A program made the translations under genes and the position numbers. Below, piece after piece: positions 20,200 to 27,895 of a stretch of DNA of 27,895 nt; position 1 is the first letter of the stretch, and the number at the start of each line of letters is the position of its first letter. Where the stretch lies: assembly GCA_036501665.1 (NCBI GenBank), contig DASXZW010000024.1:1-27895 (forward strand), given 5' to 3'. The notes below the pieces were generated by a model that ran no database searches, was not told the origin of the DNA, and saw only the letters and a program-made list of their open reading frames with translations. The DNA is from Verrucomicrobiia bacterium. Its GTDB lineage: Bacteria; Verrucomicrobiota; Verrucomicrobiia; Limisphaerales; Palsa-1400.

Positions 20200-21336
20200 A
20201 TGAGTACTTTCACAAATTTCTATTTCCTAAAAAACAACCGCGCCAATTTCGAGTTGGACGTTCGGAAAGACGCCAAATTGGTTTTCGGATACACCAAACT
20301 GAAAGACCTTGTGGACTCCATGCTTGGCGACGCCACGATCAGTGGCACGCCCCCTAAGAGTTTCTGGTGGGGTCAGTACGGTTGTGGCAAAACCCATCAC
20401 TTGCATTACACCGAACAAACGATAAATGCAGTGATGCCATTTAGAGTAGTGCGTTTCGATCTCCCAGAAGTAACGAGCAAGAGTCTTTTCAATGATCTAC
20501 AACTGAACCTCGTGACTCGAATCGACTTAGCCTATTTCAGACCACTCCTCATTTCTCGCTACCAGGCTGACCTCACATGGCTGCAACACCTCTCAATTCC
20601 TCCGGACGTAAGGCAAGCCTTTAATACGATAATCAGTAACGAAATGCGAGCCTTAGAAGCGTGGCGGTTTTTGGCCGGCATAAAAACGGACGATCCAGGT
20701 GGCATAGGGGTAACAAAGAAACAACTCACAGAGGGTGAGGAATTTGCCGCCGCAATAGCTACCATCGCAGAGGTGATTCATTTGCAGGAAAACAAGATGT
20801 TGCTTTACCTAATCGATGAAGCTGAGGGGCTCAGCGCCGTCACCAATGCTGATTCACAGAAAAAGTGGGCACATTCTCTCCGCAAATGTCTCGACCTACG
20901 CGTGGGTTTCGTTTTAGCAATCGCTGCTGAAAAACAGCAATACATACCCGAAATCCTCCAGGCCCAAGAGGTCTGGCGACGCGTTGGAGACGACTACATC
21001 GTCGCTCTCCAGGCACTCCGCGTTCCCGAAATTGAAGGCTTTCTTCGTGGGCTTCTTCACGCTTTCATCGACGAACAGAAACTGATCGCCGCCGAGGGTG
21101 CTGGCACGTTCGCTAACTATCCCCTTTACGATAGGAGCACCTTTCCATTTACCCAAGAAGCTCTCACCGGCTATGCCAAGTACCTTGGCCACAATCAACA
21201 AAACTCGAAGCCATCTGAAATCCTAAAAAATCTTCAAAAGATTAGCCATGCGGCGGTTCGCGTTGATAAACGAGTAATCGACAAAGACTTCCTCACTACG
21301 GCAGGACCCGACGGCCAAAGTTGCTTTCACGACTAA
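20200..21336 (+). CDS. P-loop NTPase, BrxD/DUF2791-like (paralog 1)
   Basis: Walker A: FWWGQYGCGKTHHL. Walker B: LLYLIDEAEGL. It is the first gene of a six-gene coupled operon. Family assignment is from motif resemblance only. Confidence 0.7.
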   Translation: MSTFTNFYFLKNNRANFELDVRKDAKLVFGYTKLKDLVDSMLGDATISGTPPKSFWWGQYGCGKTHHLHYTEQTINAVMPFRVVRFDLPEVTSKSLFNDLQLNLVTRIDLAYFRPLLISRYQADLTWLQHLSIPPDVRQAFNTIISNEMRALEAWRFLAGIKTDDPGGIGVTKKQLTEGEEFAAAIATIAEVIHLQENKMLLYLIDEAEGLSAVTNADSQKKWAHSLRKCLDLRVGFVLAIAAEKQQYIPEILQAQEVWRRVGDDYIVALQALRVPEIEGFLRGLLHAFIDEQKLIAAEGAGTFANYPLYDRSTFPFTQEALTGYAKYLGHNQQNSKPSEILKNLQKISHAAVRVDKRVIDKDFLTTAGPDGQSCFHD

Positions 21337-21345
21337 GGACGACTT

Positions 21346-24903: not shown

Positions 24904-26207
24904 GCACACTGGATCAACCGTTAGCCAAACGGCTCATTTCGCGCCTGAAGGCAGGTACGGCGCCCATTGACTGTGTGGACCAATTGAATGTTGGAAATGA
25001 AGCTTGGTACAGTGCTGCTGTTCAATACTTTGAGGACTTAGCTCAGGATGGCGACGCCCTCGTCCGCTTCGTGCGCGGCCACTATGGTGATGGCAAAACA
25101 CACTTTTTAGGGATGCTCGGTGCTCTCGCATTCAAAAACGGTTGGAGCGTCAGCTACGTTACCGCCGAGAGAACCAAACTTCACAAATTCGAGGTCGTCT
25201 ATTCCGAAATTATAAAGGCCATAAATCTTCCGCCAGGTGTTTCAATTGTCCCCTGGCTTACTGAAATCAGACCGAGGGGGGCGATGTCCCTGTTGGGAGC
25301 CTTTTTCTCCAAGATATACATCGACGTGCATGGTGCTGCCAATGAACATGGCATCAATCGAATGTCGGTACTTCACGAGGTTAAACAACGTGTGGCCAAG
25401 TTTAGTGCGGCGAACGGATTCCACGACTTAGTGAGCACAGCGCTCATGATTTTCACGAAAGCAGCACTGGCACAAGAGGCTCAAGGAATGTCTGACATGG
25501 TTTCATGGTTTCAGGGTGATGATGTTAAATTTAGAGATAAAGGAATAAATAGGCGGATCGACCAACGTCTTGCAAGAGATGTGCTTCGCTGTCTCACGCA
25601 AGTATCCCAGCACGTAGGGATTCGTGGCACCTTGGTCCTTCTTGACGAGGCGGAACTTATATTGGCACAAACGAAGTCTGTACGCACTAAATCCTATTCG
25701 GTGCTTCGTGACCTCCTCGATAATGCCGATCCGCAAGCAGGAATGCGCGCATCCATTATATATATTGCTGCGACACCAGAAATGTTCACGGCTAAAGAAG
25801 GCTTTGCTGAGTACGAAGCGCTGCGCTCGCGCCTAATGCCGGCATTATCCTTTACATCCAAGAGATTCATCGACTATCGCGACGTGGTAGTTGATCTCAC
25901 GCGAACCCCGCTTCCTGCGGACCTCCTGTTCCAGCTTGCAAAGAAAGTACGTGGAATCCATTCTGTTGCCAGACAGTGGGACGCTTCGGCTCACATTTCG
26001 GACGATCTGCTACAGATCATTGTCACGCGGATAGACAACGGGTCGTTTCCCGTCTCGAAGCCGCGCATGGTTACTTCCGTGATTACGCAGCTTCTGGAGT
26101 CCGCTGAGCAGAACAGGACCGAGGACCCCACTTTGGCAATTGAAGCGACGGTGTCGGATGCGGCACAAACACTCTCCATGCGGCCCGATTCCGAGAAATG
26201 GGATTGA
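24900..26207 (+). CDS. P-loop NTPase, BrxD/DUF2791-like (paralog 2)
   Basis: LISRLKAGTAPIDCVDQLNVGNE...VRFVRGHYGDGKTHFLGML is a DUF2791/BrxD-style N-terminus plus Walker A. Walker B: LVLLDEAEL. ATGA overlap with the upstream gene. Confidence 0.72.
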   Translation: MSTLDQPLAKRLISRLKAGTAPIDCVDQLNVGNEAWYSAAVQYFEDLAQDGDALVRFVRGHYGDGKTHFLGMLGALAFKNGWSVSYVTAERTKLHKFEVVYSEIIKAINLPPGVSIVPWLTEIRPRGAMSLLGAFFSKIYIDVHGAANEHGINRMSVLHEVKQRVAKFSAANGFHDLVSTALMIFTKAALAQEAQGMSDMVSWFQGDDVKFRDKGINRRIDQRLARDVLRCLTQVSQHVGIRGTLVLLDEAELILAQTKSVRTKSYSVLRDLLDNADPQAGMRASIIYIAATPEMFTAKEGFAEYEALRSRLMPALSFTSKRFIDYRDVVVDLTRTPLPADLLFQLAKKVRGIHSVARQWDASAHISDDLLQIIVTRIDNGSFPVSKPRMVTSVITQLLESAEQNRTEDPTLAIEATVSDAAQTLSMRPDSEKWD

Positions 26208-27895
26208 ATCAGCGGGAATTTCAGATGAACCTAACGAAATCAAGTGCTCGCTGCGCAATTCGGCACTTGAAGCGTGGCGTGTTCCCGCCAGATGAGATTG
26301 AGCATTTCACGGCGGGCCGCGACTCCGAGTGCAAAGCTCTCAACATCGCCCTTAAAGAAGCAGAACAGGGGGGAAACCGCCATTTCTTTATCGAAGCGAG
26401 CTATGGCGTGGGCAAATCACACATGCTCAAGCTCGTTGAGTCACTTGCACTACGAAATGGCTTCGCGGTGTGCTGGGTAACTACTGACGGTTACGCGCAC
26501 GCTTTCAACCATCCTACCCGCTATTTGCACACCCTTCTCGAGAACATGAGAGTTCCAGGTTTGCACAGAAACGGGTTCGCTCAAGCGTGTTCGCATTGGC
26601 TCAAGAACCGCGAACGCGACAACCTACTTACTCGCGTTAAGAGTCAGCCTAACAATGCGCTTCACTGGCCTATTATCCGCATGAGTATGGAAAACGGTGA
26701 CGAGGGCGACTATAAGGATTACTATCTGGGTAACCTAGAGTGCCGCGATCTACAGCATAGAAACGGTCAAGCGTTTTTTGATTGTGTGTATGACCGCATC
26801 GCGTCAATGAACTCGGTGTGTCGTTCTGTAAGTTTAAAAGGAACTGTGTTTCTATTCGACGAAGTTGAATCCGTGGCTACTCTTTTGGTTAATATTCGTT
26901 CTCGTCTTCTTTCTTACGAGTTAATGAATGCATTCACCGATGCTCGCCGATTTCCAAATTCTGTATTTGTATTCGCCACCACCCTCGATTTCAGTGTTAA
27001 GATTCATTACGAGCTGAATGCTTACGAACTCCAAAACTATGCGTATCCAGAAGGCAATCGTTTCGCAAAAAAGTGGATTTCAAAAGGCATAAATCTTCTC
27101 AAGTTAGAAGGAATCAGCCAAGGAAATAATCGAGTACTGTTGCGTAATATTCGGACCGCCCACGAGACCGCCTACGAATGGGTGGCAACCGAAAAGATCA
27201 GCGACCATTTCATCGATCGGTTCCTCAAAAAGGCCAATGATCTTCCTCAGCGTGAGATTACGAGGAGCTTCGTCACTATTCTGGAAATCTCACATCAACA
27301 TCCCACCTGCTGCCCGGCAACCGAATTCCTTGGCGAGGCGTCGCCCACGCCGCAAATTGTGGAGGGCAATGACTCTAGGGTGGTTCGGGAGACCTTTGGT
27401 TCACAGGACGTACCACCATCGCCATGCACTCCGCAAGCGGAGTCGACTTCGGCATCACGTTCTTCTAAAGCAGAGCCGCCAAAAAACCAGTCAACTCCTG
27501 ATTCGTCAACTGTTACGCATGAAACGCCGTTGCCAGATCAAAACCTTAGTTCCTTTCCGCAGCTTGGTTCTTCCACGGCACCATTGACTACTCCAAACAC
27601 TGGCCTATTGCCGTGCGTTCATTGCTTTGCATCAGTAAGGTCTGACCGTATGGGAAGGCATATTGCTCGGTTTCACGCAGGTTTGCAGCCGCCAACCAAT
27701 GTTGCGCCAATGGAAGCCACCGTGGACCAGCCGGGCAAATCAACATCAAATAGCGCGGAAGGCACTTTCACCAGCACCTCAATCTGTTTGGTGCCGTGTA
27801 ATTATTGCTTTTGCATGGTCAGATCTGACAGATTGCAACGACACATACAACGTGTGCATTCAGGGCAACATCGTCCTCCAAGTCCCAATGACTAG
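26198..27895 (+). CDS. P-loop NTPase, BrxD/DUF2791-like (paralog 3), with an S/T/P-rich linker and two C-terminal C2H2-like zinc fingers
   Basis: Walker A: FFIEASYGVGKSHMLKL. Walker B: VFLFDEVES. C-terminal CVHCFASVRSDRMGRHIARFH and CNYCFCMVRSDRLQRHIQRVH. The stop TAG is the last 3 nt of the window. The start could be 26198 or 26225. Confidence 0.72.
   Translation: MGLNQREFQMNLTKSSARCAIRHLKRGVFPPDEIEHFTAGRDSECKALNIALKEAEQGGNRHFFIEASYGVGKSHMLKLVESLALRNGFAVCWVTTDGYAHAFNHPTRYLHTLLENMRVPGLHRNGFAQACSHWLKNRERDNLLTRVKSQPNNALHWPIIRMSMENGDEGDYKDYYLGNLECRDLQHRNGQAFFDCVYDRIASMNSVCRSVSLKGTVFLFDEVESVATLLVNIRSRLLSYELMNAFTDARRFPNSVFVFATTLDFSVKIHYELNAYELQNYAYPEGNRFAKKWISKGINLLKLEGISQGNNRVLLRNIRTAHETAYEWVATEKISDHFIDRFLKKANDLPQREITRSFVTILEISHQHPTCCPATEFLGEASPTPQIVEGNDSRVVRETFGSQDVPPSPCTPQAESTSASRSSKAEPPKNQSTPDSSTVTHETPLPDQNLSSFPQLGSSTAPLTTPNTGLLPCVHCFASVRSDRMGRHIARFHAGLQPPTNVAPMEATVDQPGKSTSNSAEGTFTSTSICLVPCNYCFCMVRSDRLQRHIQRVHSGQHRPPSPND

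Follow-up and report, generated by a model that had tools for sequence, protein, structure and literature searches.

The DNA considered here is a stretch of 27,895 nt, contig DASXZW010000024.1 of a Verrucomicrobiia bacterium from the lineage Palsa-1400 (GenBank assembly GCA_036501665.1), referred to below as the window. Positions 20200-27895 are filled by six open reading frames (ORFs), all on the + strand and named g1 to g6 in the following, which the original prediction described as one translationally coupled operon of ATPases and unknown proteins. The functional unit exceeds these six genes: the gene of a probable PLD-family nuclease, a sigma-54-type promoter and the gene of a putative sigma-54 activator, all located upstream of position 20200, belong to it as well, and we infer a cassette of eight genes, i.e., the activator, the PLD protein, and g1 to g6. 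Eight or more independent loci from metagenomes carry this cassette, at 23-52% identity, and it is a rare, so far nameless candidate defense system. With evenly balanced confidence, we favor the interpretation that it would act as the restriction arm in a 7-deazaguanine modification-restriction system of the Dpd type, located on a conjugative or mobilizable element in a Verrucomicrobiae metagenome-assembled genome (MAG).

Organization, Conservation and Rarity of the Cassette

The first gene, g1 (20200..21336), encodes a divergent BrxD/Orc-Cdc6-type AAA+ ATPase of 378 aa, and is followed by g2 (21346..22746), encoding an ATPase of the HerA/FtsK superfamily (466 aa), and g3 (22743..24032), encoding a predicted multi-winged-helix DNA-binding protein of 429 aa. 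The fast-evolving g4 (24046..24903; 285 aa), with a fold lacking a known match, is translationally coupled to g5 (24900..26207), the gene of a BrxD-family (PF10923) AAA+ ATPase of 435 aa. The last gene, g6 (26225..27895), specifies a second PF10923 ATPase, which consists of a core of ~380 aa and a lineage-specific tail. The ATGA start-stop overlaps at 22743 and 24900, as well as the gaps of 9 nt (g1/g2) and 13 nt (g3/g4), are present in the sequence as previously described, and the overlaps between g2 and g3 and between g4 and g5 are kept in most orthologous loci. At the g5/g6 junction, the genes either overlap by 10 nt (alternative ATG at 26198) or are separated by 17 nt (ATG at 26225); in the alignment, the latter start is the one kept in orthologs.

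The gene order PLD-g1-g2-g3-g4-g5-g6 is repeated in the metagenomic loci L001/L002, L003, L004/L006, L005, L018 and L019, and in one contig of JGI 3300059473, while L008 carries a re-ordered version. The orthologous contigs span 23% to 99% identity to the window, and adjacency and fixed order are still retained in L001, whose proteins are 30-50% identical to those of the window. Purifying selection is strong on most of the six genes. In the comparison of the window with L003, dN/dS ranges from 0.018 to 0.077 across g1, g2, g3 and g5 (0.037 for g1, 0.018 for g2) and amounts to 0.09 in the core of g6; the values for the tail of g6 and for g4 are 0.35 and 0.42, respectively. The recurrent order together with the low dN/dS values implies that the six genes are real and form one unit.

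The cassette is nevertheless scarce. Six close homologs of g3 and eight homologs of g4 were found among 5.8 billion proteins; g4 occurs in one of 185,579 species genomes, another Verrucomicrobiae MAG, and a search of metagenomes returned five loci. Neither g1, g2 nor g4 was matched in 72,556 plasmids by tblastn, a g1 profile scan of viral contigs gave no match, and neither plasmids nor E. coli genomes gave a megablast match to 20200-27895. Two of the proteins are identical to Verrucomicrobiae MAG entries (g1 to HEY3853691.1, g4 to HEY3853694.1). Two independent assemblies of the Verrucomicrobiae lineage MFD09671 (L004:7461-8596 and L006:6182-7317) show g1 split into two overlapping ORFs of 143 and 235 aa, and g3 is broken as well in L006, a long-read contig.

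A Probable PLD Nuclease Gene and Predicted Sigma-54 Control

The PLD-family protein (19481..20011, + strand) adds a seventh gene to the six. It contains a single HKD motif, HxK...GSxN, which is conserved among the loci, and matches Pfam PLDc_2 (2.8e-6) as well as the PADLOC models of the defense nucleases ZacB (5.6e-11) and DrmC. In every locus, its gene stands before g1; in L001 the two overlap, and in L008 the gene is located within the cassette. Based on these family matches, the protein is probably the nuclease effector of the cassette.

A sigma-54-type -24/-12 element, TTGGCAT-N5-TCGCA, is located at 19453..19469 (+ strand) and begins 28 nt 5' of the ATG of the PLD gene. Across the loci, such an element lies 24-31 nt before the first gene of the cassette: it occupies the same place in L003, L004/L006, L005 and L018, the L018 copy being a perfect TGGCAC-N5-TTGC, while L019 has it before the activator gene, the direct neighbor of the PLD gene in that locus. 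The pattern TTGGCAY-N7-GC thereby shares its position in six divergent loci. In the whole window, the pattern is not enriched (2 matches vs. 0.64 expected), and the promoter call is based on its conserved position in otherwise unalignable spacers, not on enrichment. Further upstream, a palindrome, GCAAT-N3-ATTGC (19340..19352), lies 114 nt before the promoter and recurs at a spacing of 110-115 nt in four lineages (window, L003, L004 and L005), which makes it a candidate binding site for an activator. Further matches to TTGGCAC-N7-GC, at 11716-11731 of the window (inside queC and upstream of queE) and at L003:15926-15941 (downstream of g6), may be extra sigma-54 sites or chance occurrences. A scan for sigma-70 promoters and terminators yielded matches at or below shuffle expectation, the spacer between the PLD gene and g1 contains neither a terminator nor a stable RNA structure (z = +0.97), and Rfam over the whole window returned nothing.

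The putative activator itself is encoded directly upstream (18125..19327, + strand). This AAA+ protein of 400 aa matches Sigma54_activat (1.7e-28) and, over its AAA+HTH part, the PADLOC model RtcR_PspF2 (1.5e-37). It resembles activators of the PspF/RtcR type in its AAA+ sigma-54 interaction domain, the adjacent -24/-12 promoter and the upstream palindrome and, like PspF, is devoid of an N-terminal sensor domain. However, its loop reads GAFTDA instead of GAFTGA, no CARF domain and no Pfam HTH were detected, and its target, judged from the genes, would be an operon for a nuclease and ATPases. The activator accompanies the cassette even in L019, although TGT genes are not within reach there. With a -24 GG/-12 GC promoter and the features of a cognate activator both present, the cassette qualifies as a predicted sigma-54-dependent operon. 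Another gene, 12 nt upstream of the activator gene (17714..18112, + strand), encodes a protein of 132 aa that is conserved in L001, L003, L004 and the JGI 3300059473 contig and had no family match in domain and profile scans.

Three BrxD-Family ATPases

The original prediction grouped g1, g5 and g6 as paralogs with an unusual P-loop context. Indeed, the P-loops GQYGCGKTHHL (g1, Walker A GCGKTH), GHYGDGKTHFL (g5) and ASYGVGKSHML (g6) are found in the sequence, as are the Walker B motifs LIDEAE (IDEAE in g1), LLDEAE and LFDEVE, and these motifs, together with those of g2, are conserved across 7-8 orthologous loci. The assignment of proteins with this YGxGK-type P-loop to PF10923 (BrxC_BrxD, DUF2791) is borne out for g5 (157.6 bits, 6e-46) and g6 (83.9 bits, 1.4e-23), which score far above the gathering cut-off of 22.2 bits. 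By itself, g1 stays below this cut-off (11.5 bits); three of four g1 orthologs are matched by PF10923, with a best E-value of 2.4e-5.

The relationship between the three proteins extends beyond a generic P-loop. While g5 and g6 match each other by BLASTP (7e-10), pairwise BLAST of g1 against either was not significant. In profile-profile comparison by hhalign, built on 7-8 orthologs per family, g1 aligns with g6 over 290 columns (95.2% probability, E 2.7e-8) and with g5 over 197 columns (86.8% probability, E 4.2e-6), and g5 with g6 at 99.7% probability. Against PDB, the top match of a seven-sequence g1 profile is the archaeal Cdc6 2qby_A, with a weak E-value of 0.058; PDB searches with a four-sequence g1 profile and with g5 gave no match. 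The hhalign alignments, the PF10923 matches of the g1 orthologs and the Cdc6 match together argue that the three ATPases are correctly regarded as paralogs.

Judged by their profile scores, all three are members of the BrxD family and not BrxD orthologs: none reaches the cut-off of 350 bits of the BrxD equivalog NF033438 in NCBIfam (g5 130.9, g6 55.6, g1 11.8 bits). In PADLOC, g5 matches BrxD (8e-39) and SngB (1e-25), and g6 matches SngB (2e-16). In the g6 tail (27350..27892, + strand), a linker rich in P, S and T is combined with two C2H2-like zinc fingers (CxxC-x12-HxxxxH), which are weakly matched by Pfam zf-H2C2_5 and zf-C2H2_12; the tail is present in the window and L003 and missing from L001, L004, L005, L008, L018 and L019. 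We know of no established role for BrxD.

The HerA/FtsK-Type Motor and Its Putative Partners

The HerA/FtsK assignment of g2 is upheld at moderate strength. The motifs GSGKS, IDEAQ and ATQRP, on which this assignment had been based, are present and invariant in eight loci; g2 matches nine HerA models in PADLOC (HerA 2e-8) as well as mad8 (3e-11), and in PDB HerA 9c1m (7e-6) and, weakly, FtsK 2ius. DUF87 is recorded on the g2 orthologs of L001, L018 and L019, and the window protein scores 15 bits, under the cut-off of 23.2. Weak similarity also exists to pumps of the TraC, EccC and CedB type.

For g3, no Pfam family was matched, and an exhaustive hidden Markov model search yielded a family of 113 cluster representatives. 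The AlphaFold2 model (pLDDT 84.8, pTM 0.89) consists of helix-hairpin units, and its top Foldseek match is the FokI recognition domain 2fok_B (E 0.028), followed by winged helices of Cdt1, ORC and MarR. An earlier PDB profile search with g3 gave no match; the g3 profile weakly matches the winged helix-turn-helix (wHTH) regulator 4gcv (E 0.11). From the model, g3 may tentatively be considered a multi-winged-helix DNA binder. The model of g4 is confident as well (pLDDT 86.4); neither Foldseek (best E 1.1) nor a profile search found a match for it in PDB.

The Deazaguanine Module Preceding the Cassette

In five lineages (window, L001, L003, L004/L006 and the JGI 3300059473 contig), the cassette is preceded by genes for a ParB_N-domain protein, a TGT-DUF5591 protein and the biosynthetic enzymes QueC, QueD, QueE and FolE2. 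In the window, the synthesis genes for preQ0/preQ1 (queF-like, queC, queE, queD and folE2; 10591..13960, + strand) include queF; QueF-II, QueC and FolE2 score above, and QueE and QueD below, their NCBIfam cut-offs. The QueF-II-type preQ1 synthase (10591-11274) carries an unexplained N-terminal extension of ~100 aa. In the 12.5-kb JGI 3300059473 contig, a gene for a queuosine-precursor transporter of the Vut_1/YhhQ type lies between g3 and g4.

The TGT-DUF5591 protein (15706..17640, + strand), presumably a DNA deazaguanine transglycosylase or modifier, resembles ArcTGT and ArcS: it combines Pfam TGT with DUF5591, the catalytic core of ArcS, matches ArcTGT 1iq8 and AF0587 2q07 in PDB, and shows matches below the cut-off to NCBIfam ArcS and TgtA. 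No DpdA model and no DpdA structure in PDB was matched, and its nearest annotated relatives are located on haloarchaeal plasmids. The gene overlaps that of the ParB-like protein (14217..15713, + strand; ParB_N 8.7e-25), which matches no DpdB model and for which a DpdB-like role may be proposed. The presence of an ArcS-like TGT-DUF5591 protein and queF suggests that the base in DNA would be neither dADG nor dPreQ0 but, e.g., dPreQ1 or dG+.

Genes for a TrwC relaxase, a coupling protein resembling VirD4 and a ParA-like protein are found in the left half of the window, which places the locus on a conjugative or mobilizable element; in L006, as in the window, the locus is flanked by genes for a relaxase and a coupling protein.

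The variant at L008:2107-12520 (JGI Ga0172371_10008890) is devoid of TGT and que genes and contains, in this order, genes for a GNAT-ABC-ASCH protein, HerA, a 406-aa protein, the PLD protein and g1-, g4-, g5- and g6-like proteins, next to the housekeeping gene asd. The GNAT-ABC-ASCH protein, a putative modifier that matches mad3 of MADS, stands at the same cassette end where the TGT module would be. The 406-aa protein holds the position of g3, yet was rejected as its counterpart for want of detectable homology to g3. Relatives of the g1-like gene of L008 occur in Chloroflexota and Pseudothauera records; the g1 family comprises WP_136385682.1 of Pseudothauera rhizosphaerae, MFC2006548.1 of Chloroflexota and 49 further clusters. 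Conversely, the Halorientalis litorea plasmid NZ_CP095485.1 (L021:11166-17293) encodes QueD, QueE, FolE and QueC, two TGT proteins, a hypothetical protein of 298 aa and an ATPase of 385 aa, with neither a ParB gene nor the rest of the cassette. This BrxD-like ATPase, annotated as a BREX ATP-binding domain protein, has the g1 profile as its best match (4e-19). It was stated previously that no named system has this gene set and that none is linked to deazaguanine modification. The gene set matches none in PADLOC, NCBIfam or the literature searched, so the first statement stands; an unpublished adjacency of a g1-type ATPase and TGT genes does exist in archaeal GenBank records.

Comparison With Known Defense Systems

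Although the PADLOC check assigned the operon to no named defense system, several systems share components with it. A close analogy is offered by Dpd, the 7-deazaguanine restriction-modification system dpdA-K of Salmonella Montevideo (Thiaville 2016, PMC10164549). Dpd and the window have in common a pair of TGT-family and ParB-like proteins, genes for preQ0 synthesis next to these, a PLD-like protein of small size, a putative restriction module of several genes that is rich in ATPases, and carriage on mobile islands. However, no orthologs of DpdA, DpdC or DpdD-J are present in the window, no DpdB model was matched, and DpdK reaches 12.6 bits against a cut-off of 100. Its TGT protein is ArcTGT/ArcS-like and fused to DUF5591, queF is present, and expression is predicted to be under sigma-54 control. 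Moreover, restriction by Dpd uses SNF2/DEAD helicases, in place of which the cassette has BrxD-like ATPases and HerA; no helicase or DUF328 gene was found within 9343-27895. A canonical Dpd system was therefore rejected, as neither a DpdA ortholog nor DpdC and the restriction genes DpdD-K were found. A type IV, i.e., modification-dependent, restriction system was likewise rejected, because the cassette is encoded beside the modification genes whose product it would attack.

The BrxD protein of type 2 BREX (Pgl) belongs to the same Orc/Cdc6-type AAA+ family as g5, g6 and, more remotely, g1, and shares the YGxGK(T/S)H P-loop with all three; an N-terminal LxxGxxP segment is common to g5 and g6. 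While a BREX operon has one BrxD, the window has three paralogs, and type 2 BREX was rejected since no match to PglX, PglZ, BrxC, PglW or BrxHI was found among the scanned window proteins. Shango (SngABC) was rejected as well: despite the SngB matches of g5 and g6, neither SngA (TerB) nor SngC (helicase) is present.

Other systems share the motor. HerA/FtsK and Orc/Cdc6 ATPases, multi-wHTH proteins and nucleases have been proposed as a theme of defense (PMC10853773), and the cassette fits this broad "capture" theme as well as that of multi-gene modification-restriction islands. As in the capture systems, a HerA/FtsK pump and ATPases of the Orc/Cdc6 clade share a mobile operon with a predicted multi-wHTH protein that evolves rapidly and with a probable nuclease. 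Those systems have an inactive restriction endonuclease (REase) inserted in the Orc/Cdc6 protein and an active REase, whereas in the window the probable PLD nuclease is a protein of its own, the BrxD-type ATPases are three in number, and g4 and a sigma-54 activator are added; no REase family was matched by any cassette protein in Pfam and PADLOC scans. DndFGH/DptFGH also bring a HerA-type motor together with a nuclease and a reader of the multi-wHTH type and act against DNA without the self mark. These are giant fusions, whereas the window proteins are separate; the system was rejected, as DptF, DptG and DptH were not matched and g2 matches the C-terminus of DndH marginally (E 0.028).

HerA in combination with TGT has been reported for the BREX-related capture system BRC (PMC12839542), which resembles the window in its HerA/FtsK translocase and its TGT (or GNAT) modification gene, and GNAT-bearing BRC resembles the L008 variant with its GNAT-containing protein. 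The defining components of BRC are PglZ, the BrxC-like DUF6079, DUF4007 and a STAND NTPase; none of them was found in the window, and BRC lacks ParB, whereas the window has a ParB-like protein; with the HerA-like and TGT components alone present, BRC was rejected. MADS (mad1-8), which also includes a kinase, a subunit for specificity, and a methylase, was rejected because mad6, mad7 and mad8 are mandatory and the match of g2 to mad8 is the sole one in the window.

A Possible Restriction Mechanism and Its Alternatives

If the cassette is the restriction arm of a Dpd-like system, the following sequence of events may be envisaged from what is known about the protein families involved (PMC10853773; PMC12839542; PMC10164549). 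The pair of ParB-like and TGT-DUF5591 proteins would mark the resident DNA with a base derived from preQ0 or preQ1. The activator, possibly controlled by its 132-aa partner as PspF is by PspA, would turn on transcription of the PLD gene and g1-g6 from the sigma-54 promoter. The BrxD-type, Orc/Cdc6-like ATPases g1, g5 and g6 could then assemble on DNA with g3 and g4, and recruit or load the HerA/FtsK ring g2, which would reel in unmarked DNA for cleavage by the PLD nuclease.

Several observations weigh against this interpretation. Gating by sigma-54 means that expression would be induced, an unusual feature in a restriction system of the surveillance type. The TGT protein is not a DpdA ortholog, the ParB protein matches no DpdB model, the fold match of g3 is weak, and g4 has none. 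Moreover, L019 contains the activator, the PLD gene and g1-g6 with no TGT gene within reach, and L008 has neither TGT nor que genes, which argues that deazaguanine marking is not strictly needed. On the Halorientalis plasmid, finally, a g1-type ATPase stands next to TGT genes in the absence of the other cassette genes and could thus serve modification rather than restriction.

A more specific and tentative proposal, is possible but rather doubtful in its entirety: the cassette may represent a new class of modification-linked restriction engine, gated by sigma-54 and combined with interchangeable marking. Here, an ORC-like hetero-oligomer of the three BrxD-type ATPases would, together with g3 as the reader and g4, load the HerA/FtsK ring onto unmarked DNA and feed it to the PLD nuclease. 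The marking module could be an ArcS-like TGT, providing bacterial DNA with a preQ1- or archaeosine-type base, or a GNAT-ABC-ASCH protein as in L008.

The main rival holds that cassette and deazaguanine module are independent neighbors. The cassette would then be a sigma-54-induced, modification-blind defense that captures or aborts, and the deazaguanine would protect the DNA of the conjugative element in new hosts as an anti-restriction mark. The cassettes of L019 and L008 are compatible with this, as is the location of the locus on a mobile element; HerA systems like DndFGH have been argued to act alone (PMC10853773), and deazaguanines of phages are anti-restriction marks (PMC6884629). On the other hand, adjacency and gene order have been retained down to 30-50% protein identity (window vs. 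L001), the preQ transporter gene of the JGI 3300059473 contig is inserted into the cassette itself, and in L008 one putative DNA modifier replaces the other at the same cassette end. We regard independence as unlikely. Even so, the cassette would still be a new, though rare, candidate defense system.

Less probable still is a scenario in which some or all of g1, g5 and g6, with g3 and g4, are needed for modification, so that the locus would perform marking and restriction, or marking alone. The ATPases would scan for target sites and drive an ATP-dependent base exchange, comparable to BrxC in BREX or SspB/SspC in Ssp. SspC is an Orc/Cdc6-type ATPase with a triple-wHTH partner in a modification module (PMC10853773), for BRC, a different NTPase was proposed to substitute for DpdB (PMC12839542), and the g1-type ATPase of Halorientalis directly follows two TGT genes in a locus without ParB. 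However, in the window a candidate ATPase for this task, the ParB-like protein, is already coupled to the TGT gene, the nuclease is always carried by the cassette, and the cassette exists without any TGT gene. That the operon instead belongs to the DNA-processing, segregation or transfer machinery of a conjugative element, as an FtsK/VirB4-like pump with loader ATPases, is very improbable: for all the faint likeness of g2 to TraC, EccC and CedB and the relaxase and VirD4-like protein in the window, L008 and L018 have housekeeping or metabolic genes on at least one side and no transfer genes, the PLD nuclease gene accompanies the cassette throughout, defense systems are known to contain PF10923 proteins, and the plasmid collection contained no g1, g2 or g4.

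To our knowledge, how 7-deazaguanine marks are read and how unmarked DNA is cut is unresolved even for Dpd. If the restriction interpretation is right, the locus offers a second, unrelated restriction module attached to the same chemistry as Dpd and thus allows a comparison. The ArcS-like TGT-DUF5591 protein and queF hint at a bacterial DNA modification beyond dADG and dPreQ0. In addition, BrxD is placed in a defined context, with three paralogs alongside a HerA pump, a nuclease and what is probably a reader of DNA, which makes the hypothesis of loader and motor testable, and sigma-54 control is added to the regulation of defense systems.

Further Observations in Neighboring and Related Loci

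In the interval that separates the que genes from the coupling-protein gene, the window encodes a HATPase_c_4 protein of 407 aa (9343-10566), which matches the pAgo-associated Aga/PNTD models of PADLOC. In L019 (12846-19091), genes for a UvrD helicase, an N6_N4 methyltransferase of 992 aa and a ResIII/RE_endonuc protein lie on the opposite strand beside the cassette; they could constitute a system of their own or serve as an alternative module for marking. On the Haladaptatus plasmid NZ_CP119784.1 (L020:13992-29998), two paralogous TGT-DUF5591 proteins, which share 31% and 27% identity with the protein encoded at 15706-17640 of the window, are found beside a third TGT gene, a PLD-like gene, a DEAD/DEAH helicase gene and the gene of a 1493-aa AAA protein, and this region looks like an archaeal Dpd-like island.

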